NCBI GenBank assembly: GCA_035479795.1
Contig: DATIII010000002.1
Location: forward strand, 7 to 64,006
Direction of reading: 5' to 3'
Length of the DNA: 64,000 nt
Source of the DNA: Candidatus Saccharimonadales bacterium
GTDB lineage: Bacteria; Patescibacteriota; Saccharimonadia; UBA4664; SCTI01
Part shown: positions 1 to 33,528 of the stretch, piece after piece
Position numbering within the stretch: the first letter of the stretch is position 1
Layout: every line of letters starts with the position of its first letter
Position numbers and translations under genes: made by a program
The notes under the pieces: generated by a model
What the model saw: the letters and a program-made list of their open reading frames with translations, nothing else
The model's database searches: none
What the model was told of the DNA's origin: nothing

Positions 1-135
1 AACTACACCTACACTCCCAGCCCAGCCTCCTGTGCTTCCGGTGCGTGTACTTCCTACACCCTGACATCCACCTTGGAAAACACCAAGGATCCGCAGGCTA
101 CCGGTGGTACCTACACCGTCAACTCTGCTAACTAA
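1..135 (+). CDS. C-terminal fragment (truncated by window start) of a secreted/pilin-like protein ending ...CASGACTSYTLTSTLENTKDPQATGGTYTVNSAN*
   Basis: Frame-1 translation is open from nt 1 to TAA at 133-135. Thr/Ser-rich tail with a Cys-X3-Cys pair resembles pilin/pseudopilin C-termini. Confidence 0.3.
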   Translation, partial: NYTYTPSPASCASGACTSYTLTSTLENTKDPQATGGTYTVNSAN

Positions 136-150
136 TAAGATCCAACTAAA

Positions 151-184
151 AAGGACCCCGACCGAAAGGAAGGAGTCCTTTTTA
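151..184. terminator. Putative bidirectional intrinsic terminator between convergent genes
   Basis: Stem AAGGAC(151-156)/GTCCTT(175-180) is preceded by an A-run and followed by TTTTAG. It lies between the end of the upstream + gene and the stop of the - gene at 182. Confidence 0.4.
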
Positions 185-1333
185 GTCGAGGTCGAAGCCC
201 AGCTGATTAGGGTTGGGCGGAGCGTCGGCGGCCGCCGTCACATTCGCCTTGCGAACATAGCGGAAGCCGCTGGCCAGATCTGCTGGCTCAATGATGTTAC
301 CTGTGAAGCCTTGTGGGCCGAGGCGCCTGTCATTTAGCTTGATTTCGCCCCACTTATAGTAGGGGCCGGCGGGTACATTCCAGTTGCAGGTAGTTGAAAA
401 GCGGCAGGTACCGCAGGCACGCAACCATTGGTTAATAGCCGCCGTTTGATCCCATAACAAGTCCTTTTTATACAGGACAGTTGAGCGGTTATCAAATTCG
501 CCTTCCTGACGCCATTCAGCCTCAGGGTTATCCGCGCACTTTGCCTTGGAGTACAGCCAAACAGCATTGCAAAGCTCTAATGGCTCCAGGCCGGCCTCCT
601 CAGCGCACCACAAGTAAAAGTTCCTAATCGCGTCCAGGACGGTATCCGTGTAGACATTACTATCCTGGTCGCCGTACACCTTCACTATTTCATTGGCCAA
701 GGTGACCCGAGCGACATGGATGTCCACGGGGATAGGGAAGTTGAACGGGCTAACGAAGCCCGCATCCATGAAGTAATAGATAATCATGCTGACCATCTTG
801 TGCTGGAAGCCCTTAAAGCCATTGCCGCGGTGGTCGTTGCGAATACGGCGCACGGCTTCATCCCAGGAATCCAGGCCGAGAAAAATATTGCCGGGGTCGG
901 CGTCGTAGCGCTCCACCAGCCGTCGGGCGTTCTCCACCCAGAATTGCGGGGTTTGGCTTTTGCGATAGTTAAGACCGACGGCCTGCAATGCCTGACTCAG
1001 GACCTCCGGGTCCAAGTTAATGGCGTACTCCGGCAGATAATACTCCGGATGCTCATCAAAGATCTTCGACATAGCCTTAACGGCCGTCACGGAGTCCACG
1101 CCGCCGCGCATGTAGTAGTTGATATGAAACAGCAGCAGGCGATGCAGGCGACTGCCAACTTCCAGTGTTTGCGGCATATGCCGAGGGTCCTGCGGCACAA
1201 CCGCGTCGGGCCGATCAAACGGATCGGCTCCCACTCGGTAGAGCTCAAGTATGTCGTACATGACCTCCAGACCCTTTTGCCAAAAGATCCGCGTGCGCAG
1301 CTTGGGTATATTGGTTTTCGAAATAGTTCTCAC
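182..1333 (-). CDS. HhH-GPD superfamily DNA glycosylase-like protein (endonuclease III-like helix-hairpin-helix) with a Cys-rich C-terminal segment
   Basis: 383-aa ORF. The segment FKGFQHKMVSMIIYYFMDAGFVSPFNFPIPVDIHVARV matches the Nth/MutY pattern LPGVG...FG.P.FPVDTHV.RV. C-terminus CGTCRFSTTC suggests a metal cluster. Start codon is GTG or lies downstream. Confidence 0.4.
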   Translation of the reverse strand: MRTISKTNIPKLRTRIFWQKGLEVMYDILELYRVGADPFDRPDAVVPQDPRHMPQTLEVGSRLHRLLLFHINYYMRGGVDSVTAVKAMSKIFDEHPEYYLPEYAINLDPEVLSQALQAVGLNYRKSQTPQFWVENARRLVERYDADPGNIFLGLDSWDEAVRRIRNDHRGNGFKGFQHKMVSMIIYYFMDAGFVSPFNFPIPVDIHVARVTLANEIVKVYGDQDSNVYTDTVLDAIRNFYLWCAEEAGLEPLELCNAVWLYSKAKCADNPEAEWRQEGEFDNRSTVLYKKDLLWDQTAAINQWLRACGTCRFSTTCNWNVPAGPYYKWGEIKLNDRRLGPQGFTGNIIEPADLASGFRYVRKANVTAAADAPPNPNQLGFDLD

Positions 1334-1421
1334 CTCCTCTCTATGTGAAGAGAGGGTGTCAAAGGGCTTAAACGCTACCGAGTATACCAGATATGGCCGG
1401 TGACCGTTATAATCAGATCTG

Positions 1422-1988
1422 ATGAAACGCTACCGATATCGCCGAATTTCAATTTGGACGCTAATTATCGCCATCTTGACCTTGCTGGGAGCCGGAGTCA
1501 CCCAAAAAGGGCAGGTAGTACTGCCGACTCTTTCGTCACAACCGGGTTTTTACCCAGTGACGCACGTGACTGATGGCGATACCATTGAGGTCAATTTAGC
1601 TGGGAAAAATGAGATCGTAAGGCTCATTGGGATCGACACGCCGGAGGAAAAAGATCCACGCAAGCCGGTTCAATGCTATGCCTTGGCCGCTGCCCAGCAT
1701 ATGCAGCAGCTAGCGGGAGACAAGAGTGTGCGCTTGGAAGCCGACCCGGATACCAGCGACCGTGATAAATATAACCGGCTACTTCGCTACGTCTATCTAT
1801 CCGACGGTACCTTTGTAAACCAGGCTCAAGTTCAGCAGGGCTACGGCTTTGCTTACACCATTTTCCCAAACTCCAAATTAGATCAGTTTCGAGCCTGGGA
1901 GCGCGAAGCCCGGGGGGCTAATCGTGGCCTGTGGGCCGGCTGCCAAATTCACTCCGAAGGTGAGAAAGAACAAACTAACGACCAATGA
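1422..1988 (+). CDS. Thermonuclease (staphylococcal nuclease / SNase homologue) with an N-terminal membrane anchor
   Basis: Motifs HVTDGDTIEV, RLIGIDTPEE and RLLRYVYL...GLW match the SNase fold and its Ca-binding residues. A transmembrane segment is at residues 10-28. Confidence 0.8.
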   Translation: MKRYRYRRISIWTLIIAILTLLGAGVTQKGQVVLPTLSSQPGFYPVTHVTDGDTIEVNLAGKNEIVRLIGIDTPEEKDPRKPVQCYALAAAQHMQQLAGDKSVRLEADPDTSDRDKYNRLLRYVYLSDGTFVNQAQVQQGYGFAYTIFPNSKLDQFRAWEREARGANRGLWAGCQIHSEGEKEQTNDQ

Positions 1989-1992
1989 TCGT

Positions 1993-2379
1993 CTAGGAGA
2001 TCGGGGCTTCGGGTTTGCCAATCTTGGCGCTAAGGATCACCTGACGCACCTCACCATCCTTATCCTTAATTTGAGTGTCCTGAGTTTCATTGTAATAAGC
2101 TACCAAATGATGGCTCATAATTTCGGCTAAGTCTTTTTGCTTAAATTTTAGCTCTTCGAGTTCAGAATTAACGGTTTGAAAATCACGATCAGCCTCCAGC
2201 AGTTTTTTTGCCTGCTGACGTTTGGCTGTTAGCTCCTTAATTTCTTCTTGAAGCTTCTGGTACTCCTGATTCTGCAGTAGCACATCTTTGAGATTATCGC
2301 GCATTACCTTGATTTGATTGCGGACCTCGTCCATCTCTTCCATTACGCGGTGTACGGCATCAACTGTCTTTTCGTCCAT
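1993..2379 (-). CDS. Hypothetical coiled-coil protein
   Basis: 128-aa ORF, highly charged with heptad-like KELTAKRQQAKKLLEADRDFQTVNSELEELKFKQKDL. No recognisable enzyme motif. Confidence 0.45.
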   Translation of the reverse strand: MDEKTVDAVHRVMEEMDEVRNQIKVMRDNLKDVLLQNQEYQKLQEEIKELTAKRQQAKKLLEADRDFQTVNSELEELKFKQKDLAEIMSHHLVAYYNETQDTQIKDKDGEVRQVILSAKIGKPEAPIS

Positions 2380-2433
2380 TTGTTTTCCCTTAATTCTTTA
2401 ACGAGTATAGCAAACAAAATGCGTCTAATTGCT

Positions 2434-2483
2434 TTGACTTTTATATCTGTCAGGTGTTAAATATCAAAACTGTTCCCTGACAA
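2434..2483 (+). promoter_or_regulatory. Sigma70-like promoter (TTGACT-18-TAAATA) overlapped by an inverted repeat CTGTCAGG...CCTGACAA; candidate operator for the 2492-3189 operon
   Basis: -35 TTGACT at 2434-2439, -10 TAAATA at 2458-2463. Inverted-repeat arms at 2447-2454 and 2476-2483 (7/8 complementary). SD-like aaaggaa precedes ATG 2492. Confidence 0.35.
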
Positions 2484-2491
2484 AGGAAATT

Positions 2492-2878
2492 ATGCCTGCA
2501 ACAAAGCTTCAGCACGGCTGCTACAGCCTAAGAAGCGCTTTCTCCATCATCCAGCACGCCCATGCCGGAGCACCGATGGGCTATATCGAGGCCTTGGAAG
2601 TCGCCGACGCGCCTGACGGCAAGCATCGGATTGTGCTTTGCCACTACAACGGCAACCGCGGCCACTACAGGTTCGTGGAGTTCGAGAGTGTTGAAGACAC
2701 GGTCCGTGAAGTCAATCGGCTGCAATGGGGCTCGCGGGCAGCCACGGACGAGGAGTTCTATGCTTCTCGCGACGGCTTTGTGCGCTTCGTGGCACTGGAA
2801 GAAAACCAGGCCCCGTGGTTCTACGCAGAAGACGTCACCAACGTGACAAGCGACTGCGATTTCGTGATCGAAACATGA
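2492..2878 (+). CDS. Hypothetical protein (128 aa), first gene of a two-gene high-GC operon
   Basis: ATG with upstream aaaggaa and balanced amino-acid composition. Stop TGA overlaps the next ATG (ATGA). No family recognised. Confidence 0.45.
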   Translation: MPATKLQHGCYSLRSAFSIIQHAHAGAPMGYIEALEVADAPDGKHRIVLCHYNGNRGHYRFVEFESVEDTVREVNRLQWGSRAATDEEFYASRDGFVRFVALEENQAPWFYAEDVTNVTSDCDFVIET

Positions 2879-3189
2879 GCGAGTCCAAACGCGCTCACTC
2901 AGGACGGACCATCAGCTTTCTGTTTCGCTCGAGGCGTAAAGAGAACAGCGATCGGGGCATGCTTGAGATCAACCGCAAAACCAGCGTTCTGGTCACAGTC
3001 ACAAATGTCGACGACGAGCAGGCTCGAGTCACGGTCCGAACCACGGTTAATGACCATGGAGGACCACTTGATCAAACCGGCTTTATTGCGCCCAGGACCA
3101 TGCCCAGATCTGAAGTCCACGCTTTTGTCAGCGGGGTGGCTGCACTATCGCTGGCATTTACCGGCCGCGAACCGGAGGTGAAGACTTAG
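2875..3189 (+). CDS. Hypothetical protein (104 aa), translationally coupled to the upstream gene
   Basis: ATG at 2875 overlaps the preceding stop by 4 bp (ATGA). Followed by an intrinsic terminator. No family recognised. Confidence 0.4.
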   Translation: MSESKRAHSGRTISFLFRSRRKENSDRGMLEINRKTSVLVTVTNVDDEQARVTVRTTVNDHGGPLDQTGFIAPRTMPRSEVHAFVSGVAALSLAFTGREPEVKT

Positions 3190-3194
3190 GCGGT

Positions 3195-3221
3195 GGCAGG
3201 GAAACCTGCTGCCGCTTTTTT
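3195..3221 (+). terminator. Intrinsic terminator of the 2492-3189 operon
   Basis: Stem GGCAG(3195-3199)/CTGCC(3209-3213) followed by TTTTTT (3216-3221). Confidence 0.55.
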
Positions 3222-3224
3222 AAT

Positions 3225-3264
3225 GAAAAACTGAGGCGCTCCGGTCGTATATGAACGGAGCGCC
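3225..3264 (-). terminator. Intrinsic terminator of the minus-strand gene 3289-3591
   Basis: Perfect 9-bp stem GGCGCTCCG(3235-3243)/CGGAGCGCC(3256-3264). On the minus strand it is followed by a U-run (complement of GAAAAA at 3225-3230). Confidence 0.55.
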
Positions 3265-3288
3265 TATTCGGCTGGATGCGACCAAGCG

Positions 3289-3591
3289 TCAGACTCGAGA
3301 CCTGGTCGCACCAAGGGCGGCAAGGGGCCCGCCCCAGCGCCGAAGATGATCGCGGGTCCTGTTGTAGAGGCGATCTTCAAGATCGCTGTCGGGTCGCTGC
3401 GACTCCTTTTCGAAGCGTTTGAGCGCCAACCCGGGGTTGTCGCCGGAGCTGACCATCCAGCTCACCGCCTCGAACTCGCCGGTCTCGCGGTCGTTGTGCG
3501 GATGACCGCTGGCTGCCTCGTATCGCTCTTTGGCTTCGGGGTAGGAGTTGCCCCGGCCGCGGAACAGGCCCATCGCACGCTTGAGCATCAA
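3289..3591 (-). CDS. Hypothetical small Ala/Glu-rich acidic protein (100 aa)
   Basis: Strong SD AAGGGAG 5 nt upstream of the ATG. A terminator lies downstream. It is convergent with the 2492-3189 operon. No family recognised. Confidence 0.5.
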   Translation of the reverse strand: MMLKRAMGLFRGRGNSYPEAKERYEAASGHPHNDRETGEFEAVSWMVSSGDNPGLALKRFEKESQRPDSDLEDRLYNRTRDHLRRWGGPLAALGATRSRV

Positions 3592-3652
3592 TGCTCCCTT
3601 CTTTCGGAGTGAACGTGCTTATGCCAAAAATACTCCCGCCACTTATTGGTTG

Positions 3653-4912
3653 TCAACCAATAATAAATAGGCGATTTTCGGCACGAGTTACGGCTGTATA
3701 GAGCCAGCGGCGCCAGTCTTCATCGCTCATATGCTTGTTACGCTCTTCAAACACAATCACCGTATCAGCCGACGATCCTTGGGCTTTGTGAACGGTCAGG
3801 GCATAGGCGAAGTCAAACAAGTCACCTTTAATTTTTTTATCAGGTGTCTTCGGTAATTCTTTAACTGTTTCGCGGGCCCCAAATTGTTCACGCAGTAGCA
3901 AACCTTCATACTCAAAATCATCGATTTTTAAGCCCACCTGCCACCACTTCTCCTCATCGTCAGCCTCGGCCTTGTTTATCCAGCGCACCGAACCAGTCAT
4001 GCCGTTGTACAGCTTGGCCCGACTATTATTGCGTAGACAGACAACATGATCGCCTGACACTGGATCGGCTGACTCAAACCCCATGCGGCCGCGTAGCGAC
4101 TCATTGAGCCGGACTCGAGTGTGGTTGTAGCCACACAACACCAGCCAATCCGGCCGCCACTGCTCGAGCAGCTCATCCATGACCACGCCAATATCATCCG
4201 CCCCACGATCAATCTTAATAACTTCGCTGCCATAGCTGCCAGCCGGAATCTCTCCGGTAGTGCGGGCCAATGTAGCTGCTTGCACGATCCCTGAGCCTGC
4301 AGCCTGTCGATAAACCGCTTCCAGACGCAGCTGCGGATCGGCCATCAGATTAAAGCTAGATCCAACAGGCGGCAGTTGGCCATGATCGCCAACCGCTAGA
4401 ATCGGAATGCCAAATGACAACAGGTCCTTCCAAATATCGGCGGTAACCATACTAGCCTCATCGACGATTATCAGATCAAATTCTAGCTCTTTCTTTTTGC
4501 GCCAACCGGTAATCCGGCCGCCGGAGTCGGTTTCGGTATGGTAGATCAGGCCATGAATGGTCGATATATTGTCAGACTTTTTGGCAATGCGATGGCTCTT
4601 TAGAGTCTTTTCCAGCACCCGCACGGCCTTACCGGTATAGGCACAAAAGGCGACCTTGGCATCCGGATCGTTCTGACGCAGCGCCTGGCGAACATAGGCT
4701 ATCAAGGTAGTTTTGCCCGTACCAGCGTACCCACCCAGCGTTATAAATGGCTCAGATTTGGTTCGGTACCACCGGCCAATTGTCTGGAGGGCTTCAATCT
4801 GTTGTCTTGATAACTCGTAACTCACAAAGCCAAGTGTACCAAACTCCAGCATCCAAAAAATCCAGACATTTTGCGCCAGGGCGTTGGAATTAGTGCTAAT
4901 GCTGAGTATCAA
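3653..4912 (-). CDS. SF1B ATP-dependent DNA helicase, phage T4 Dda/RecD-like (AAA_30 + UvrD_C_2 architecture)
   Basis: Walker A GGYAGTGKTT, Walker B IIVDEASMV, and motifs ILAVGDHGQLPPV and YALTVHKAQGSSADTV...YTAVTRA. Length about 420 aa, like Dda. Start is TTG at 4912 or an internal ATG. Confidence 0.8.
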   Translation of the reverse strand: MILSISTNSNALAQNVWIFWMLEFGTLGFVSYELSRQQIEALQTIGRWYRTKSEPFITLGGYAGTGKTTLIAYVRQALRQNDPDAKVAFCAYTGKAVRVLEKTLKSHRIAKKSDNISTIHGLIYHTETDSGGRITGWRKKKELEFDLIIVDEASMVTADIWKDLLSFGIPILAVGDHGQLPPVGSSFNLMADPQLRLEAVYRQAAGSGIVQAATLARTTGEIPAGSYGSEVIKIDRGADDIGVVMDELLEQWRPDWLVLCGYNHTRVRLNESLRGRMGFESADPVSGDHVVCLRNNSRAKLYNGMTGSVRWINKAEADDEEKWWQVGLKIDDFEYEGLLLREQFGARETVKELPKTPDKKIKGDLFDFAYALTVHKAQGSSADTVIVFEERNKHMSDEDWRRWLYTAVTRAENRLFIIG

Positions 4913-4955
4913 ATGAATGCCATAGGATAAATTTAATTAGCTGGGAGGGCTTAGT

Positions 4956-5177
4956 ATGGAAGGAACTGCCGAAAGGAGACACCGTTTGGCGCAGTGGGCC
5001 GCCAAGATCTTGGATTCGGATCTGGACGCCCTGGCCAAGGCGCGCAAACTAGTGGCGCTAGGTTATGACGACGCCGAGGCCGACGAGTTGGTAATGCGTA
5101 GTCAGTTTGCAGCGCAGCAGCCGGTCTACTATGAACAGCTGCCGAACGCCGACTATGCACCGGACAGTGACGAGTGA
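4956..5177 (+). CDS. Hypothetical small acidic protein (73 aa)
   Basis: SD GGGAGGG 7 nt upstream of the ATG. Balanced composition. Confidence 0.4.
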   Translation: MEGTAERRHRLAQWAAKILDSDLDALAKARKLVALGYDDAEADELVMRSQFAAQQPVYYEQLPNADYAPDSDE

Positions 5178-5260
5178 TCAGTTACAAGTAACAAGGATTT
5201 GGTTTCGAGCCGCTTGTCACGTGTTACATGCTACTTGTAACTTTCGTGTAAACTGTTGGC

Positions 5261-6055
5261 ATGAAGATTTATTCCTGGAATGTCAATGGCATTCGCGCCG
5301 TTCATAACAAAGGCTTGTTTTTACCATTTATCGAGCAACATCAGCCCGATATTTTGTGCTTGCAGGAGACCAAGGCAGCCCAACACCAGTCACCAGTAGA
5401 GGTGCCGGGCTATACCGAGCATTGGAATTCGGCCGAGAAACCGGGATATTCCGGCACGGCCATCTTTACCAAGCATCAGCCAGTGGCGGTTATTAATGGC
5501 TTTCCTGAAGATCTAATTGAAAAATACCACCTGACAGGTGATGTTTACGGCGACCCTAATAAAGAGGGACGGGTGGTGGCAGCCGAATTCGACAGCTTCT
5601 ACGTTGTCACCGTCTACACACCCAATGCCAAAGATGATTTATCGCGCATCCCGTTACGCCAAAAATGGGACCCGGCTTTTTTGGAATACTGCTTGCGGCT
5701 GGAAAAAACAAAGCCAGTAATTTTCTGCGGCGACCTTAACGTGGCCCATACCGAAGATGATCTGGCTCGCCCCAAGCCTAATAAAGGCAAGAAGGGTTTT
5801 ACCGAAGAAGAGCGCGGGGGATTCCAGAGCTTTTTAGACCATGGATTCGTTGACACCTTCCGGCTGTTCCACCAGGGCAACGGCCACTATACCTGGTGGA
5901 CTCACTGGGGAAATGCCAGGGCTAACAACGTCGGCTGGCGGATTGACTATTTGTTGGCCTCCAAAGCTCTGAAAGGCAAGATCGCCAAGGCCGAAATCCA
6001 TGCCGATGTCATGGGCTCCGACCATTGCCCAATCTCTCTGACACTTGAGGGCTAA
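5261..6055 (+). CDS. xth: Exodeoxyribonuclease III (AP endonuclease, EEP family)
   Basis: Motifs MKIYSWNVNGIRA, LCLQETK, the CGDLNVAH catalytic region, and C-terminal SDHCPI. Confidence 0.9.
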   Translation: MKIYSWNVNGIRAVHNKGLFLPFIEQHQPDILCLQETKAAQHQSPVEVPGYTEHWNSAEKPGYSGTAIFTKHQPVAVINGFPEDLIEKYHLTGDVYGDPNKEGRVVAAEFDSFYVVTVYTPNAKDDLSRIPLRQKWDPAFLEYCLRLEKTKPVIFCGDLNVAHTEDDLARPKPNKGKKGFTEEERGGFQSFLDHGFVDTFRLFHQGNGHYTWWTHWGNARANNVGWRIDYLLASKALKGKIAKAEIHADVMGSDHCPISLTLEG

Positions 6056-6907
6056 GTGAATTTCTTAAAGCAGGCGGAAGAGCCGCTTTTCCCGGACATC
6101 CTCTGGAATCGACCACTCGTCAAAAATCGGGGAGGCCGCCTGTTGGCTCTCGGTGGTCACTCACGCGGTTTTGCGGCCATCCAGGCGGTTTTCCAGTTGG
6201 CCGAAGCCGCCGGGATCGGCGAGTGCTTGATTGGTATTCCCGACAGTCTGGCCAAGTTAGTGGGTGATGCCCCCGAAATCATGGGCTTACCGGCCAGCCC
6301 ATCAGGATCCCTGGGCAAGGCGGCACTGGGCGAAGTTCTCCATACGGTGGCCGATTGCGATGGTCTACTAGTGGGTCTGGATTTAACCAACAATTCTGAA
6401 ACAGCCGTTTTAGTCGAATCCGTTCTGCAGAAGGCCGAAAAGCCAATCATGATGACCGAGGAAGCCCTGGATACTTTGCCTGGTTCGGCCCAGGTTATCA
6501 CTGAGAATGCAGAGGCTGTTTTGATTGGTAGTATGAATGCCATTATTGCCGTTGCCAATCGAAACAAGTTGGCCCTGCAACTTCGACCAGAGAAACAGCT
6601 AATTGGCCGGATTGAAGCCGTCCAGCAAATCGCAGACGCAGCTAAATGCGCTCTGGTAATAATTGGACGCGAGATTATTGTCTGTGCTGATGGCCAAACC
6701 AGCATCACGCCCCAGCGGGGTGATGCGTCGGACCATCCGGCCGTGCAAGCAGTGTTTGCTCCATTCTGGTTGCAAAATAAATCTAAACGCTTCGAAGCTC
6801 TGACCACGGCTGCCTTCGTTTTAAGCAAGTCACTACCCGCCGATCAAGATCTGACCTACGGCCAGATCGCGGGGAGTATTCGCACGGCCCTGCAGCATTT
6901 CAGTTAA
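6056..6907 (+). CDS. YjeF C-terminal-like / carbohydrate-kinase-fold protein (possible NAD(P)HX dehydratase-like, divergent)
   Basis: Spacing of GG....A...A..AA.G motifs, LLVGLDL, and DAL...P resembles Nnr2/YjeF_C. The canonical C-terminal GxGDxLxG is absent. Confidence 0.35.
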   Translation: MNFLKQAEEPLFPDILWNRPLVKNRGGRLLALGGHSRGFAAIQAVFQLAEAAGIGECLIGIPDSLAKLVGDAPEIMGLPASPSGSLGKAALGEVLHTVADCDGLLVGLDLTNNSETAVLVESVLQKAEKPIMMTEEALDTLPGSAQVITENAEAVLIGSMNAIIAVANRNKLALQLRPEKQLIGRIEAVQQIADAAKCALVIIGREIIVCADGQTSITPQRGDASDHPAVQAVFAPFWLQNKSKRFEALTTAAFVLSKSLPADQDLTYGQIAGSIRTALQHFS

Positions 6908-6940
6908 CCTCCGGCTGAAAAATGTTATGCTATAGAGGTA

Positions 6941-7960
6941 ATGCTTACCGCCAAGTCGGAAAGTCGTGGAGTTCGCAGCATGGATGGCCTTCGTCGATCG
7001 CGGCCGCTACTGCAGCCTGCCCAGTCTCTGGCAGGCCGACCGATCACTCTAGCTGGCACACCGCCACAAGAGCCAATTGAGCCAGCTGCTGTTTTGGCCA
7101 CGACCAACATTGTCGTACCTCGCCGTAATTTAAAGCCATACATCTTAACCGCTGCCTTTAGCGCGGCTGTGCTTTCGGTAACGCCAATTTACAATTACCT
7201 TCAGCAACCCAACGTGGCCTTTGATCAACTGGTTGTCAAAACCATTAACATCGTCCACCCCCAGCCTATAGTGACTGTCGAGTGGGCAAAAATTGATTCA
7301 AGTCTTCCAGCTCTAATTAACTCATCCTCTGGCCTAAAAATAGGGGTATCGGTTATTGATCTTTCAACTGGCAAGCAAAGCAGTTATGGCGAGACCGGGG
7401 CCTTTACTGGTGCCAGCACCACCAAGGTTGTAACCGCCATCGCCTTCTTGCAGATGGTGGAACAAGGGAAAGTCAGCCTATCTGAGAAGCTCGGGAGTAG
7501 TCCAGCAGATTACCAGCTACGCCAGATGATCCAACGCAGCAATAATGATTCATGGGCGCTCCTGAACGCGCGAGTGGGTACGGCCAGCCTACAAAAGCTG
7601 GCGCCAAGTTATGGGGCCAATTCTTATAAGTACATCGGCAATAAGATTTCCGCCGCCGATGATGCAACCATGCTTGCCAGACTATATCAGGGCAAGTTAC
7701 TCAATGCCGACCACACGCAGCTGCTGCTTTCGTACATGCAGAACACCAACAATGAGCAATTAATTGCCGGATCTGATTTGCCATCTGGCGCCACCGTTTA
7801 CCATAAATACGGCCAGCTTGACGAGAACCTGCATGACACCTCGATAATTAAAATTGACGGCCGGCCGCTTATCCTTTCCATCTACACCGCGGGAAGCGGG
7901 GACTATACCACGCGGACCAATCTCATACACCAAATTACCGATTTAGTCATAGCCAAATAG
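6941..7960 (+). CDS. Class A beta-lactamase-like serine hydrolase (penicillin-binding fold)
   Basis: SxxK as STTK, SxN as SNND, and a KTG-like KYG motif. N-terminal hydrophobic segment. Confidence 0.55.
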   Translation: MLTAKSESRGVRSMDGLRRSRPLLQPAQSLAGRPITLAGTPPQEPIEPAAVLATTNIVVPRRNLKPYILTAAFSAAVLSVTPIYNYLQQPNVAFDQLVVKTINIVHPQPIVTVEWAKIDSSLPALINSSSGLKIGVSVIDLSTGKQSSYGETGAFTGASTTKVVTAIAFLQMVEQGKVSLSEKLGSSPADYQLRQMIQRSNNDSWALLNARVGTASLQKLAPSYGANSYKYIGNKISAADDATMLARLYQGKLLNADHTQLLLSYMQNTNNEQLIAGSDLPSGATVYHKYGQLDENLHDTSIIKIDGRPLILSIYTAGSGDYTTRTNLIHQITDLVIAK

Positions 7961-7964
7961 TCCG

Positions 7965-8495
7965 ATGCCATCAGAAACCCCAGCCGATTTGCCCACCCAA
8001 GCAAACCAACTAGTAAGTAAAAGCACTGACACTTTCAAGATCGAAATAGTCCAATCAATAATTGCAAGGCGGAGGAACAGTGCTCGATGGGCCGTAGGGA
8101 TAGTTTTGGTGGTATTGTTTGGTTCCACTTATTTTGATAAACACTACGATGCCGAGGCGTTAATCATTGCGGGTTCCATTTTTGTTCCGTGGTTTACAAC
8201 GCTTTATTTCGTCAACGCCGCAAACTGCCTGCAGCCTAGGACATATTATCGGCATTGGAACAAGATTGTGTACTATTCTCTGGCCAAGTTGGCAGTATTT
8301 TTTAATATCATTGATACCACTGGTGATGCGAAAGGAATCTTCAACCCTTGGCACGGCTTAATGGATTCCACCGTGTCTTCTAGACCGACCTTATTAACGG
8401 ACATGGCAATTTCTGCCGGCACTGGCTACAAAATTCAAAGAAGCCTGAAGCCCGCTGAATATATCGAAGCATATTTCAAACAGCAGCTTGGGTGA
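7965..8495 (+). CDS. Hypothetical membrane protein
   Basis: 176-aa ORF with 3-4 predicted transmembrane segments. No family recognised. Confidence 0.35.
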   Translation: MPSETPADLPTQANQLVSKSTDTFKIEIVQSIIARRRNSARWAVGIVLVVLFGSTYFDKHYDAEALIIAGSIFVPWFTTLYFVNAANCLQPRTYYRHWNKIVYYSLAKLAVFFNIIDTTGDAKGIFNPWHGLMDSTVSSRPTLLTDMAISAGTGYKIQRSLKPAEYIEAYFKQQLG

Positions 8496-8559
8496 CTGCC
8501 ACCCCCTCCAGCTTTCGTTTCTCGGCCGATGGGCGGTAGAAAGCTGACTAAATAATTGC

Positions 8560-8646
8560 TGGTACCGCCGGTCGGGCTCGAACCGACATGAGGTTGCCCT
8601 CACGGGATTTTGAGTCCCGCGTGTCTACCAATTCCACCACGGCGGC
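8560..8646 (-). tRNA. tRNA-Leu (anticodon CAA), CCA encoded
   Basis: Reverse-complement folds as a cloverleaf: acceptor GCCGCCG/CGGCGGU, D-arm with GGAATTGGTAG, anticodon loop CUCAAAA, long variable arm, T-loop GGTTCGAGCCC, 3' ACCA. Confidence 0.85.
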
Positions 8647-8732
8647 GTGCTTCTTGAAACCCCTATTGTTTGGTTCCAGAACCTAAAAAGATTATCATAA
8701 AACAACACGGATATGAAAGATAAACCTAGCCC

Positions 8733-9758
8733 ATGAGCGAAGCCAAAATAGTCCATTTTCCGCACCACAAACGATCCGATTCTGCTAATAATCCGGATGC
8801 GGCCGAACACGCCCGAGCTCGGATCGCGGCTTTGCCCGATCAATACGCTAGCCACGCATCACCTCGCCCGGATCTGGCACGCAAAATCCCCCCCGCCAGC
8901 CCAGCCGCCCAAGATCAGCCACTCAGCTCGGAGATACCAGGTATCGATGATCTTACCGAAATCGGCCGCCAGCTAAAGGGTGGAAATTCACAAGAAGCTC
9001 CAGAAGGCCAGCCGTCAGAAAGCCCACAGGAAACGACAACTAAAAAACGTCGTTTACCAAGCCAGGCTAAGCCCCTGATTTCCGCGGCAGTTACCTTTGT
9101 CATTATCTTTATGGTTTTTAAGGCGCCTATCTTTCTGACCCAGCTGAGTTACGCCACCCAGAAACCTCCGGTAACCGCGCCTTCCAATAACTCTACTGCC
9201 GTTGGCCCCGACCCGGTGATCGATATTGCTAAAATCAACGTCCACGCGCCAATCGCCTTTGCGCACAGCAATACCGAAAGTGATATTCAAAAAGATCTCG
9301 AAGGGGGAGTGGTGCACTATGCCAACACGGCCCTTCCCGGGACCACCGGCAACAGCGTCATCTTTGGACACTCATCAAACGACTGGTGGGAGCCGGGAAA
9401 TTACAAGTTCGTCTTTGTGTTATTAGACAAACTAGCAGTGGGTGATACCTTTACAATCAATTACAACTCAAAGCAGTATCTTTACAAAGTTGCCGAAGTG
9501 AAGGTTGTCGAGCCCACGGATCTGAGCGTACTCAACCAAACCTCTGACGCCGAAGTAACCTTGATCACCTGCACTCCACCAGGTACCAGCTGGAAACGCT
9601 TAATCGTTCGTGCCAACCAAACCACACCGGTAACCCAAAAATCGGCTCCGGTCCAGCCGGAAAAGCACGGCATTTTGCCAAGTAACGCCCCCGGCATTGT
9701 AGACAGCCTCGGCCGCCTGTGGAACAGCGTGGTTAACTTGTTCTCAACCGATAAGTAG
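8733..9758 (+). CDS. Sortase-family transpeptidase with a Pro-rich N-terminal region and a transmembrane anchor
   Basis: Catalytic region FGHSS...TLITCTP (TLxTC motif) with the conserved His. N-terminal transmembrane segment. Confidence 0.7.
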   Translation: MSEAKIVHFPHHKRSDSANNPDAAEHARARIAALPDQYASHASPRPDLARKIPPASPAAQDQPLSSEIPGIDDLTEIGRQLKGGNSQEAPEGQPSESPQETTTKKRRLPSQAKPLISAAVTFVIIFMVFKAPIFLTQLSYATQKPPVTAPSNNSTAVGPDPVIDIAKINVHAPIAFAHSNTESDIQKDLEGGVVHYANTALPGTTGNSVIFGHSSNDWWEPGNYKFVFVLLDKLAVGDTFTINYNSKQYLYKVAEVKVVEPTDLSVLNQTSDAEVTLITCTPPGTSWKRLIVRANQTTPVTQKSAPVQPEKHGILPSNAPGIVDSLGRLWNSVVNLFSTDK

Positions 9759-20683: not shown

Positions 20684-20925
20684 GTTTTCTCCTTGTTTTT
20701 ACTCTAATGGCGCCCTGTCGCATACAGCCATTTTTTGGCGTCTACTTCACCTCACACAGTGGCACAAGCATTTAGGCTAACAAAGACCTCGTTAACGGTC
20801 AATAGTGCAATTTAACAGTTTTTGACGAAATTGACACGCAGCTTAAGAGGCTGATAGGTTGAGATAATTACAAAAATTGGTGGGTGAGTCCCAGGAAAGG
20901 TTTCCACCTATCCTGGGACTCCCAT

Positions 20926-21873
20926 TTACTGGCCCTGGGCCAAGCGCAACCGCTTCACGTTGGCGCTGGCCTCGGCGGCCTGGGTAGAGGCCACTTCAGT
21001 CTCGTCGGCCTCGGTCATCCCGACACTGGTGGTGACCACCGGCGGGCCGAGCAAACTAGCCACCACGGCGGCCGGCGCGGTCAGCACCTTGTCATCGAGA
21101 AGTCCCACTCCCTTGTTCAGGGCGCAGGCACTGGCATCGGCCAGGGCCTCCCTGGATACGACGACCTCACCGTAACCAGTTGGCTGCTTGCACTTGAACC
21201 CAACGTCATCGACCCGAATCCCGGCAATTCCACCGATTTCCCGAGCCTTGGTAATGATGCGCTTGTCGAGCAACCCGCGGATCAACTGCCGGTAGGTGAT
21301 CTTGCCGGCGTCCGTCTGGATGACCTGAACGATGCCCTCGTAGAGGTAATCGCTCCAGCTCGACATTTCCAGCTGCTTCTTGGCGACGTCGACCACCTGG
21401 AAGTGGATGACGGGTGTGACCTTAAAGGCCACGCAGTCGCGGGTAACGATCTTGAGCTCTTGGCACTCGTGCTTCTGAGGCCGCATATCGGTGGGGGGCT
21501 GCTTGTGGATAAACGGCAGCTTGAACCACTGGCCGGCGGTCCGGATCATCAGCTGCTGCCGCCGGGCCGGGTCCCAGCCGATCGGGCAAGGCAGAATGAA
21601 CGGGCCGAAGGCGCGCAAGCCATACCGATCCCAGTACCACGTCCGCAGGTGGAGCGGCATGCCGAAACGGGTCATGACGGACTCGTGGCCGTAGGGCATG
21701 CGAAAACAGCTCTTCTTCCCATCGGCATCGTCCTTGGCCTTCTTGGCCGCAATGCCGAGAATTCCGCCGGTAGTGACACTACCCCCGACAAGTGAAGGAA
21801 CAATTGTTGCGAGACTGGGCATAAGCCCCCTCCATGGGACTCGAGATTTACAGGTAAAACGTACTCCTCGCAC
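20926..21873 (-). CDS. SPFH/band-7 (stomatin/prohibitin-like) domain membrane protein with an Ala/Val-rich C-terminal tail
   Basis: F.MPYGHESVMTRFG, WFKLPFI and QELKIVTRDCVAFKVTPVIHFQVVD match the SPFH N-terminal signature. The likely start is the internal Met MPSLATIV. Confidence 0.55.
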   Translation of the reverse strand: MRGVRFTCKSRVPWRGLMPSLATIVPSLVGGSVTTGGILGIAAKKAKDDADGKKSCFRMPYGHESVMTRFGMPLHLRTWYWDRYGLRAFGPFILPCPIGWDPARRQQLMIRTAGQWFKLPFIHKQPPTDMRPQKHECQELKIVTRDCVAFKVTPVIHFQVVDVAKKQLEMSSWSDYLYEGIVQVIQTDAGKITYRQLIRGLLDKRIITKAREIGGIAGIRVDDVGFKCKQPTGYGEVVVSREALADASACALNKGVGLLDDKVLTAPAAVVASLLGPPVVTTSVGMTEADETEVASTQAAEASANVKRLRLAQGQ

Positions 21874-21977
21874 CCCAATAAAACCACAAGCTCAATCAAT
21901 TGTTAATAAGATTTTTGGCAGAATGCTCAAATCGGATCTACTGCTTACAGCTACAATAGGACAAAAGGAGAGTAGCC

Positions 21978-31631: not shown

Positions 31632-32198
31632 ATGAAATTAATTATCGGACTCGGAAACGTCGGCAAACAATACCACGCAACCCGCCATAATCTGGGGTTT
31701 GCGGTTGTCGACGTGTTGGCCATTACTTTTGGCCAACCAGGAGGCTTCAAAAAGCATTCCAGGGCGGCGTCTGATATTTTAGACCTCAAAGCCAGCCACG
31801 GCTGCATTTTGGCCAAACCAACAACCATGATGAACCTTAGTGGCCAGGCGGTAGGGGAATTATTGCGCTTTTATAAGGTCGAACCTAAAGATGTTTGGGT
31901 TATTTACGATGATTTGGATCTGCAGTTCGGCCAAATGCGCGTGCGCGTAGGAGGCGGTAGCGCTGGGCATAATGGGGTAAAGTCCATTATTCAACACATC
32001 AGCGAAGACTTCTGGCGCGTGCGGCTAGGGATTCAGAATCAATACCTGGCCACCACTCCCACCGATAAGTTCGTATTAGATCCCTTCACAGCCGAAGAGG
32101 CCCCTAAAGTCCCTGCCATTGTCGAATCGGCTGCTAATGAAGTCGAATCCGCCTTACTCAAAGGTGAACTGACCGATCACACTCTTAACCTGATTTAG
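31632..32198 (+). CDS. pth: Peptidyl-tRNA hydrolase
   Basis: N-terminus MKLIIGLGNVGKQYHATRHNLGF and motif GHNGVKS. Confidence 0.9.
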   Translation: MKLIIGLGNVGKQYHATRHNLGFAVVDVLAITFGQPGGFKKHSRAASDILDLKASHGCILAKPTTMMNLSGQAVGELLRFYKVEPKDVWVIYDDLDLQFGQMRVRVGGGSAGHNGVKSIIQHISEDFWRVRLGIQNQYLATTPTDKFVLDPFTAEEAPKVPAIVESAANEVESALLKGELTDHTLNLI

Positions 32199-32203
32199 GC
32201 AAG

Positions 32204-32227
32204 AAAAAGCCCCACATAATGTGGGGC
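32204..32227 (-). terminator. Intrinsic terminator downstream of minus-strand gene 32269-32766
   Basis: 8-bp stem GCCCCACA/TGTGGGGC with loop TAA. On the minus strand it is followed by a U-run (A-run at 32204-32208 on plus). Confidence 0.55.
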
Positions 32228-32268
32228 GGGTGGGCGGCCACCGGTTTGCGACCGCCCCTGAACTGGTA

Positions 32269-32766
32269 CTACGAGCCGGGAGCCTCCTTGACGCTAGCAG
32301 GAACATCCTGAGGACTCTGGAAGGCCGGACCGTGAGTCGCCGCCCACCAGGTGCATCCACGAGGCCAGGGCTTGGGCCGCTTGCCCTCACGAACCTGGGT
32401 AACCAGGCGAGAGCACTTCTTGGCCGAAAGCCGGGTGATGGTTTCGCTGCCGCTGACGGCCGCGATCCGGCAATGCCTTGGCAGGCTACCCACGTCAAAC
32501 CCCGTTGCGGAGCTACCCAGAGGCTTTGCCTTCTTGCATGAGTCAAGGAAGGGGATGTCCCTCCTGAACTCAGCCACCTTGCTGCGCTGAACGCAGTAGA
32601 TCGTGTCATCGACCTGGATCGAGACACAGCCAGAGGCCGTTGTGGGTGCCTGTGCCGGCTGAGCTGCCGTCTGCCGATCAGAAGAACCACAGGCGGAGAC
32701 GAGGAGAGCGAGGACCAACCCCGCCATAATCGTCGTGAAACGAATGATGCGGGCGAAGTGGCCCAT
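32269..32766 (-). CDS. Cys-rich putative lipoprotein (165 aa), high-GC
   Basis: Signal peptide with lipobox LVSAC and 8 Cys residues. No family recognised. Consensus promoter upstream. Confidence 0.5.
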   Translation of the reverse strand: MGHFARIIRFTTIMAGLVLALLVSACGSSDRQTAAQPAQAPTTASGCVSIQVDDTIYCVQRSKVAEFRRDIPFLDSCKKAKPLGSSATGFDVGSLPRHCRIAAVSGSETITRLSAKKCSRLVTQVREGKRPKPWPRGCTWWAATHGPAFQSPQDVPASVKEAPGS

Positions 32767-32883
32767 GATTACCGTCCAAGGGTGAGTAGTGTTTTCAAAT
32801 TCCTGGACCAGGATGCGATTTGCTCGCTTCCTGGTTGAGAACCTGACCCTACAAAGTGCGTCTCACCTCTGAGATTGTTAACT

Positions 32884-32912
32884 ATAATAGCATAGTGGTT
32901 ACGTTTTGTCAA
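32884..32912 (-). promoter_or_regulatory. Consensus sigma70-type promoter cassette (TTGACA-17-TGcTATTAT) for 32269-32766
   Basis: Minus-strand -35 TTGACA (plus 32907-32912), 17-bp spacer, -10 TATTAT (plus 32884-32889) with TG at -15/-14. Confidence 0.6.
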
Positions 32913-32936
32913 GAAGATCCAATTTTCTAGACATGG

Positions 32937-32960
32937 AAAAGCCGGCCGCGAACGACCGGC
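32937..32960 (-). terminator. Intrinsic terminator downstream of minus-strand gene 32980-33528
   Basis: Stem GCCGG(32941-32945)/CCGGC(32956-32960). On the minus strand it is followed by UUUU. Confidence 0.5.
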
Positions 32961-32979
32961 TAAACCAGAACTTCAACTT

Positions 32980-33528
32980 CTACTTCTTGAGATGGCAACC
33001 TTTGGGCCGTACCACCTTGCCGACGTATGGCTTGTTCTTAGGAGTTGGGCGCATGTACTCGCGCCACTCCGAACACGTCAACTTCACGATGCGAACCGGG
33101 CCTTTCTTCATCGGATACGGGTTCGCCTTCTGCCGTAGCTCCGGGCAGTCCTCGTAGAGGTGGGGCGGGTCCGCCTCGGGGTTCTTCGGCACTGGAGATT
33201 CTTGCTCCTGCTCGTAGGCCTTGCAGTCGACCTTGGGCCGCTGCTTCGGGATCTTGCAGTAGTCGAACGGCTCACCATCGGGGCTGGTCTGACCATTGGG
33301 GTCTTCGGCCCCCAAGGGGCTGTTCGACTCGTAGCCGGGCTGCCTGCTGTAATACTGTTGATCCTTAACCCACCACTTGGGCGGATCGCACTTCTGGACG
33401 AAGGCCTGCGGCTCCGAGTAGTCGGGAAAATCCCGGTCGTACTGGATCTGCTGGCCAATGACCATGCCGACCAGGAGAGCAACAAGACCGCAAACGACAG
33501 CAGCCCAAACGACGTCGGACTTCTTCAT
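32980..33528 (-). CDS. Membrane-anchored Cys/Pro-rich secreted protein (182 aa), high-GC
   Basis: N-terminal transmembrane anchor. SD GGGAGGG. 8 Cys residues, Pro/Lys-rich. No family recognised. Confidence 0.5.
   Translation of the reverse strand: MKKSDVVWAAVVCGLVALLVGMVIGQQIQYDRDFPDYSEPQAFVQKCDPPKWWVKDQQYYSRQPGYESNSPLGAEDPNGQTSPDGEPFDYCKIPKQRPKVDCKAYEQEQESPVPKNPEADPPHLYEDCPELRQKANPYPMKKGPVRIVKLTCSEWREYMRPTPKNKPYVGKVVRPKGCHLKK

Follow-up and report, generated by a model that had tools for sequence, protein, structure and literature searches.

A probable variable accessory-gene slot beside a conserved helicase gene in a Candidatus Saccharimonadales genome

In a 64,000-nucleotide stretch of an uncultured Candidatus Saccharimonadales bacterium (contig DATIII010000002.1; hereafter the window), three small genes, here called A, B and C, lie between a helicase gene and a gene for a coiled-coil protein. 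An earlier note, made from the sequence alone, had regarded this GC-rich block and the helicase as a candidate defence or toxin-antitoxin-like module. Our comparison with related loci favours a different account, in which the block is probably a variable accessory-gene slot rather than one acquired module, with old residents that have been repeatedly lost and sometimes replaced. Judging from the sequence comparisons, A, B and C are three mutually unrelated small genes rather than a unit, and the helicase is a core, syntenic superfamily 1B (SF1B) gene in a repair neighbourhood rather than a phage-derived gene lying beside them.

The slot extends over 1,273 bp (2380-3652), from the helicase stop codon to the coiled-coil start codon. 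As described in the earlier note, the open reading frames (ORFs) of A (2492-2878, plus strand, 128 amino acids) and B (2875-3189, plus strand, 104 amino acids) are joined by an ATGA stop/start overlap. Gene C (3289-3588, minus strand, with the ORF extending to 3591) encodes 99 amino acids from the ATG at 3588, which is the likelier start compared with 3591 and lies 5 nt downstream of an AAGGGAG ribosome-binding site. Over 106-3662, the window agrees at 100% identity with an independent assembly of run SRR9179562, and the arrangement is therefore no chimera.

Slot contents across related loci

Related loci were fetched through the helicase, the coiled-coil protein and single homologues, and were compared by tblastn. 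The slot is empty in five of them (L001, L006, L008, L009 and L010), with 36-85 bp from the helicase to the coiled-coil gene, followed by the SNase gene on the opposite strand. Two others (L013 and L016) contain only a homologue of A, which is oriented divergently to the coiled-coil gene and convergently to the helicase, matching the window, and L017 contains a homologue of C alone, with the strand and position seen in the window and the promoter core kept. L007 (4997-5815, minus strand) and L014 (11133-11963, minus strand) carry an unrelated gene of opposite orientation that encodes 272 or 276 amino acids. A, B and C are found together only in this window. In L005, a homologue of A adjoins the coiled-coil gene, after which the contig is chimeric and truncated before any helicase. 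Homologues were also found in unrelated contexts (A in L012 and C in L015), and L014 has a homologue of C located 3.6 kb from the helicase.

The 272- and 276-residue occupants are 44% identical to each other and had no match in PADLOC, NCBIfam or PHROGs or, for the L007 copy, in Pfam, suggesting another uncharacterised family. In L016, a 494-bp spacer (489-982) separates the coiled-coil gene from A and includes a 64-residue hydrophobic ORF (660-854) that gene calling did not pick up. When neighbour-joining trees were built for the coiled-coil protein and for the helicase, the A-bearing genomes did not form a clade, and the empty locus L006 grouped with the occupied loci L007 and L014.

The neighbourhood comparison that the earlier note had proposed does show a block that varies among relatives, but its genes occur singly and the helicase is core. 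The composition of the block is atypical and it lies outside the conserved backbone, as five loci join the helicase to the coiled-coil gene, but it does not behave as a single unit. The block is not present unchanged in all relatives, and its small proteins lack homology to housekeeping families, so the idea of an island survives. The idea of a defence or toxin-antitoxin module with the helicase does not, given that A stands alone in L013 and L016, C stands alone in L017, B was found nowhere else and none of them has a PADLOC match.

We propose that the slot in this genome would consist of two independent, convergent transcription units parted by back-to-back intrinsic terminators. On the plus strand, a sigma-70-like promoter would serve A and then B, the latter translationally coupled through the ATGA overlap; on the minus strand, a promoter overlapping the helicase stop codon would serve C. 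A and C are most likely old and dispensable residents that were lost repeatedly through deletion and occasionally replaced, for example by the 272-276-residue gene in L007 and L014. Such replacement would probably proceed through homologous recombination, with the conserved flanking genes as arms. Natural competence has been described in Saccharibacteria (PMC10187176), and gene transfer in Patescibacteria occurs mostly within the group (PMC12455944). The three products are most likely cytoplasmic and non-essential, with no obligatory tie to one another or to the helicase.

The three small genes

A word-indexed search with the concatenated A, B and C proteins returned one match, P0001 on L005; the A and C families were found only by a full HMMER scan of 1.84 billion representatives with a concatenated B, C and A query. 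The GC content of L005, a soil contig, leaps from about 0.55 to about 0.70 near position 600, in frame into DUF748/DnaJ_C-like sequence (about 600-1270), and the contig is most likely a chimeric assembly that made the 316-residue 'fusion' P0001. As the earlier note had surmised, the three small proteins match no curated family (Pfam, NCBIfam, PHROGs and PADLOC), and the same holds for their homologues. No paralogues of A, B or C were found in the window.

Gene A encodes an acidic, Ala/Glu-rich product with an isoelectric point (pI) of 5.0. Compared with its homologue in L005, A is 79, 78 and 34.5% identical at codon positions 1, 2 and 3, respectively, with proportions of non-synonymous (pN) and synonymous (pS) differences of 0.21 and 0.86. 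The homologues in L016, L013 and L012 show a similar codon-position pattern, and by these measures A is a real gene under purifying selection. The scan identified about 129 relatives of A, with E-values from 1e-40 (P0005) to the reporting cut-off of 1e-3. They fall mainly into short (about 100-150 residues) and long (about 340-420 residues, 58 sequences) forms, with some intermediate, and the A-like domain spans residues ~50-170 of the long-form hypothetical proteins of about 370 residues. A profile of the long form matched 217 clusters at E ≤ 1e-5. The named matches, from Nealsonbacteria, Lloydbacteria, Pacebacteria/Paceibacterota, Parcubacteria and Moranbacteria, are all Patescibacteria entries annotated as 'hypothetical protein', none with a precomputed Pfam domain.

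A carries the residues of the family signature (HG...QH.YAG...GY.E.LE...P.G...PWFYA) in addition to a significant profile match. In a 42-sequence alignment of the family (A3), W109 is invariant, and G9, E33, L35, E36, P41, P108, F110 and Y111 are at least 90% conserved. An AlphaFold2 model made from this alignment, which replaced a run on a 2-sequence alignment (predicted local distance difference test score (pLDDT) of 51.5), is beta-rich with a pLDDT of 93.6 and a predicted template modelling score of 0.87. A is best described as a diverged, stand-alone copy of an uncharacterised beta-rich domain of the ~370-residue proteins. A fold search with the model found no relative in PDB or BFVD. A local motif resembling the RNA-recognition motif (E ~ 0.002) was not supported by the fold search, and we rejected that identity, as the beta-alpha-beta-beta-alpha-beta fold with RNP1 and RNP2 was not found.

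Public gene calls start A at Met29, giving 100 residues (P0002; L020 3702-4004) and leaving 2492-2575 of the window as an extension. Residues 1-28 (MPATKLQHGCY...FSIIQHA) are kept in L005, L016 and L013 and contain the HG and QH motifs of the family, which indicates that the annotated start is too far downstream. Exact-sequence look-ups of A, and of C with its TTG start, returned no match, as the public calls begin at other codons. The long forms sit in housekeeping contexts in L018 and L019, and an all-against-all comparison of neighbours revealed no conserved partner gene for the family. Two members carry further domains: P0080 has extra N-terminal pentapeptide repeats, and P0089 has C-terminal Laminin_G_3 and PG_binding_1 domains, which hint at an association with the cell envelope, on a short contig (3,959 bp) that may be chimeric.

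Gene C had been described as convergent behind back-to-back terminators, which is correct, and as Ala/Glu-rich and acidic, which is not: its product is Arg-rich and basic (pI 9.6), and A is the acidic protein. The scan returned five relatives of C with 37-51% identity, making a family of six basic proteins of about 100 residues with shared motifs (FEAxSW...P..AL..F...L.RW). Its two named members are both Candidatus Saccharimonadales, and gene C itself is deposited as HSX41120.1. Compared with L017, the codon-position identities are 74, 73 and 58%, with pN 0.24 and pS 0.56, and the third position is 34-37% identical to that of the L015 and L014 homologues. C is thus a real minus-strand gene with a signature of purifying selection. 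In both A and C, synonymous sites are saturated, as in the flanking core genes. A WXG100/EsxB-like identity was considered for C and rejected (the best PDB profile match, EsxB, had an E-value of 0.43, and the family alignment A4 has no WXG motif).

ORF B encodes a basic product (pI 10.3) with no homologue except itself in the 1.84 billion representatives or in 5.8 billion clusters. B appears to be an orphan confined to this lineage, which may represent a young gene or else an ORF without a function, and is only a putative coding sequence. In the latter case, B would be a chance open frame in GC-rich DNA, whether as untranslated 3' sequence of the A transcript or as a remnant left by decay, a reading that we take seriously but regard as less likely than not. 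Consistent with this possibility, no homologue of B exists in about 15 billion proteins, no Shine-Dalgarno motif precedes its ATG and its frame is open upstream to 2725, as GC-rich DNA would give; at the A-only loci, A ends 37-55 bp from the helicase stop codon with no B-like sequence. However, of the six frames, that of B alone has a positive codon score (0.095 per codon without the stop codon, on par with A; 0.022 with the stop codon in the six-frame scan, in which the remaining five frames score at most -0.14). In addition, its start overlaps the A stop codon, a strong terminator begins exactly at its own stop codon, and we estimate the probability of 104 stop-free codons at this composition to be roughly 0.02 per frame. 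A match of B to the designed repeat protein SAKe6AC (phmmer 1.4e-9, 0 significant stretches) was discarded as a repeat-summing artefact. The possibility that A and B are a split form of the ~370-residue proteins was also rejected, as hhalign comparisons of B and of the C family with the long-form alignment gave no match.

Transcription signals, composition and flanking core genes

The intrinsic terminator of A and B (3188-3223, plus strand) consists of a hairpin at 3188-3217, with a 13-pair stem that includes 8 G-C pairs, followed by TTTTTT. A terminator-like hairpin for gene C occupies 3226-3265 on the minus strand (hairpin 3234-3265, GGCGCTCCG...CGGAGCGCC, followed by CAG TTTTT), so the two terminators stand back to back. 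A candidate sigma-70-like promoter for A and B, read from the sequence, lies at 2434-2462 on the plus strand (TTGACT, 17 nt, TTAAAT). A consensus promoter scan missed it, as its -10 box lacks A at position 2; upstream of the A homologues of L013 and L016, the -10 boxes are of the TATAAT type. The earlier note had placed an 8-bp inverted repeat over this promoter. The repeat around the -10 box (2448-2482) has arms of 7 perfectly matching base pairs (TGTCAGG at 2448-2454 and CCTGACA at 2476-2482) with a 21-bp gap. A repeat as good arises in ~31% of shuffles of the region, and this one is not shared by L005, L013, L016 or L012; we regard it as probably due to chance, and it provides no evidence for an operator.

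The predicted promoter of gene C (3627-3656, minus strand; TTGACA, 18 nt, TATTTT) matches the consensus at 10 of 12 positions, and its -35 box overlaps the helicase stop codon. Its core, TTGAC...GTATTTTT.GCATAA, is kept in L017. A perfect 10+1+10 palindrome (3643-3663, TTATTGGTTG-T-CAACCAATAA) spans both the helicase stop codon and this -35 box. No second copy of its core was found in the window and none in 19 related loci, and the idea of a recurring regulatory site was dropped because the palindrome is unique; it may act as an operator or form a hairpin, or it may have arisen by chance. An independent Logan contig ends within the palindrome, at 3662. An Rfam search of 2300-3750 at E ≤ 1 returned no match.

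The GC excess of the block is real: 2480-3600 has a GC content of 58.8%, compared with 51.6% for the window (+2.9 standard deviations for windows of equal size), and only 0.25% of sliding windows reach this value. The contrast of about 60% with about 47% given in the earlier note was nevertheless inflated, as the comparator was the unusually AT-rich, Lys/Glu-rich coiled-coil gene (43.9%). GC at third codon positions (GC3) is 0.71 in A, 0.61 in B and 0.77 in C, compared with 0.563 ± 0.063 in 30 long ORFs, and the codon-usage log-odds of the small genes are about 0.10 per codon, compared with 0.25-0.43 in neighbouring genes. Homologues of A and C themselves exceed the GC content of their local DNA in 8 of 9 comparisons, by 1.5-13 points (2.1-6.3 for A and 1.5-13.4 for C), such that part of the island signal is intrinsic to A and C. 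Elsewhere in the window, just two 1.1-kb stretches match the block in GC content, at about 20700-21900 and 32200-33500. The former includes an ORF (20926-21873) with a weak Band_7 match (7.9e-4), and the ORFs of the latter (32154-33528, just after pth) have no Pfam match; both stretches may be further accessory regions.

The helicase ORF (3653-4912, minus strand) is of the SF1B Dda/RecD-like type by its domains, as the earlier note had proposed (AAA_30, 2.4e-21; AAA_19, 1.9e-20; UvrD_C_2, 5.9e-17; PHROG 325 'Dda-like helicase', 2.4e-84), and has a Walker A motif (GYAGTGKTT) and a DEAS box. Translation probably begins downstream of the TTG at 4912, given that alignments with homologues begin at residue ~30 and that the publicly called protein has 399 residues. 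Among close relatives with at least the C-terminal two-thirds of the helicase on the contig, it is 66-72% identical (L001, L006-L009, L013, L014 and L016); identity to the more distant L002 and L003 is 44-52%. The phage-type context previously suggested for this gene was not borne out. In every close relative examined, it is syntenic with a 73-residue gene, a 283-residue gene, the coiled-coil gene and SNase, and usually also with nfo. Like T4 Dda and RecD2-type SF1B helicases, it combines AAA_30 and UvrD_C_2 with the Walker A motif and DEAS box. Unlike RecD2, it has ~390 residues and lacks the N-terminal RecD2 domains, and assignment to RecD2 (TIGR01448) was rejected, with 131.8 bits against a cut-off of 500 over model positions 316-688 only. 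It also differs in being chromosomal and, in all the close relatives examined, syntenic beside repair genes, with no phage or defence context.

On the other side of the slot, the Lys/Glu-rich coiled-coil protein (1993-2379, minus strand, 128 amino acids) is 64-81% identical in 11 loci, the lowest value coming from a 45-residue fragment in L005. The -10 box of its gene (TATACT, 2404-2409, ~30 nt 5' of the ATG) is invariant in 6 loci; it is kept whatever the state of the slot and therefore sets the slot boundary. The other flanking genes are those named in the earlier note, with matches to SNase (3.4e-21), an AGOG-like glycosylase (1.9e-6) and Exo_endo_phos/xth (1.3e-34). Collectively, the Saccharimonadia backbone consists of the 283-residue gene, an apurinic/apyrimidinic (AP) endonuclease, the 73-residue gene, the SF1B helicase, the coiled-coil gene and SNase. 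The 73-residue gene (4956-5177, plus strand) is divergent from the helicase, has no curated-family match and occupies the same place in L006-L009, L013 and L014 (42-49% identity).

Another variable slot is found at a distance of 1.5 kb, between the conserved 73- and 283-residue genes. It encodes an AP_endonuc_2 (nfo-type) AP endonuclease in five relatives (L001 9118-9957, L008 3491-4321, L009 3578-4414, L013 4483-5319 and L014 8700-9473), is empty in L006 and L007, and in the window contains an Exo_endo_phos (xth-type) gene at 5261-6055. The presence of xth where relatives have nfo suggests that the AP endonuclease was exchanged in place for a non-orthologous enzyme.

Competing readings and known counterparts

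Several observations weigh against the view of the block as a variable slot of lost and replaced residents. The comparison covers only about 13 related loci, and several of these come from short or chimeric contigs; the trees, built from short proteins, are poorly resolved, leaving repeated insertion and repeated loss formally inseparable. The atypical codon usage is compatible with recent transfer too. The pS of C relative to L017 (0.56) is lower than that of the adjacent coiled-coil gene (0.81), which could reflect a more recent exchange of C or just shared high GC3. Recombination through natural transformation is something we only infer, and A and B may yet be functionally linked in this genome.

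An alternative is that A and C serve as accessory factors of the neighbouring DNA-repair cluster of helicase, coiled-coil protein and nuclease. In four genomes (the window, L013, L016 and L017), A or C sits directly by the helicase and coiled-coil genes; in L005, A is next to the coiled-coil gene on a contig truncated before any helicase; the C homologue of L014 is also not far from the helicase; and the neighbourhood is rich in repair genes. We nonetheless consider this role unlikely, as five relatives keep the helicase and coiled-coil genes with neither A nor C, homologues of A or C lie in unrelated contexts in L012, L015, L018 and L019, and the fold of A has no convincing nucleic-acid-binding relative beyond the local RRM-like motif.

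The earlier proposal, that A and B form a type II toxin-antitoxin-like or anti-phage pair, perhaps with C as a regulator and the helicase as an effector, seems very unlikely in light of these comparisons. A and B do resemble type II toxin-antitoxin operons in their small size, 4-bp ATGA overlap, acidic upstream and basic downstream products (pI 5.0 and 10.3) and promoter-near inverted repeat. The atypical codon usage and GC content of the block, the uneven presence of its small genes among relatives and the matches of the helicase to generic SF1B models in PADLOC would also fit such a module. However, the pair is not conserved across genomes: no B accompanies A in L013 and L016, and in L012 A has other neighbours, with no tblastn match to B, for which no homologue was found anywhere searched. 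In addition, the A domain forms part of ~370-residue proteins in Parcubacteria-type genomes, and the promoter repeat is unconserved and at chance level. Neither a toxin superfamily nor a DNA-binding antitoxin (ribbon-helix-helix, helix-turn-helix, AbrB or Phd) was recognised in A and B, and PADLOC-DB v2 gave 0 matches for A, B, C, P0007, P0008, the long forms of A and the 272/276-residue proteins. The helicase, a syntenic core gene, had only partial matches to these models (for example, PDC-M16A, which aligns 137 residues of a 691-position model, and RecD2, which falls short of its cut-off as noted above), and the right combination of models for a known anti-phage system was not found.

A more ambitious version of the slot, in which the helicase/coiled-coil junction is a dedicated site where competent Saccharimonadia exchange small CPR-specific accessory genes through homologous recombination, and A and B form a new two-gene conflict module (toxin-antitoxin-like or anti-phage) built on a domain found only in the candidate phyla radiation (CPR) and with a confidently predicted fold lacking PDB or BFVD relatives, also strikes us as a long shot. 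The block has none of the usual marks of an integrative mobile element or genomic island: no integrase or transposase ORFs were found in 1-9000 of the window, there are no flanking direct or inverted repeats above chance, and the nearest tRNA gene (8560-8646) is outside the block. A recent horizontal gain from a high-GC donor outside the CPR, such as an actinobacterium that hosts the epibiont, would account for the GC content, the GC3 of up to 0.77 and codon log-odds about a third of those of neighbouring genes, but is highly improbable, as the homologues of A and C all come from uncultured metagenomic contigs and the named ones are all Patescibacteria or Saccharimonadales, A and C keep the same slot and orientation in relatives with divergence comparable to that of core genes, their homologues are GC-elevated in other genomes too, and searches of plasmid, phage and viral collections (whole-slot blastn for plasmids and phages; viral-contig scans for A, B and C) returned no match or relative. 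Such an origin would be tenable only for B.

Seen as a variable slot, the block represents small-scale accessory-gene flux in a streamlined CPR genome and corrects the equation of a helicase plus small orphans with defence. Together, the two slots suggest that a conserved Saccharimonadia repair neighbourhood tolerates frequent presence or absence and replacement of single genes, which bears on turnover in reduced genomes. A also belongs to a sizeable family (at least 217 cluster representatives, with named members all from Patescibacteria and no curated model). Its confident model and lack of a PDB or BFVD relative make it a reasonable target for structural and functional work on CPR 'dark matter'.

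The A family resembles, by description, the CPR-enriched families of unknown function (Meheust et al. 2019, PMC6744442): it is likewise confined to Patescibacteria by the names of its members, annotated as 'hypothetical' and without a Pfam domain, and both C-family members with names are likewise from Saccharimonadales. The domain here differs in being a short stand-alone protein of 128 residues rather than the ~370-residue form. The slot itself can be compared with strain-variable hotspots, with which it shares a fixed site between syntenic core genes, alternative and unrelated contents (five states), atypical composition and occupants that are all hypothetical genes. It differs from them in being tiny, with one to three genes in at most 1.3 kb, and in lacking an integrase, a tRNA gene, att-like repeats and recognised defence genes. 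In contrast to the incoming cargo of such hotspots, at least two of its occupants, A and C, resemble old residents that have been differentially lost.

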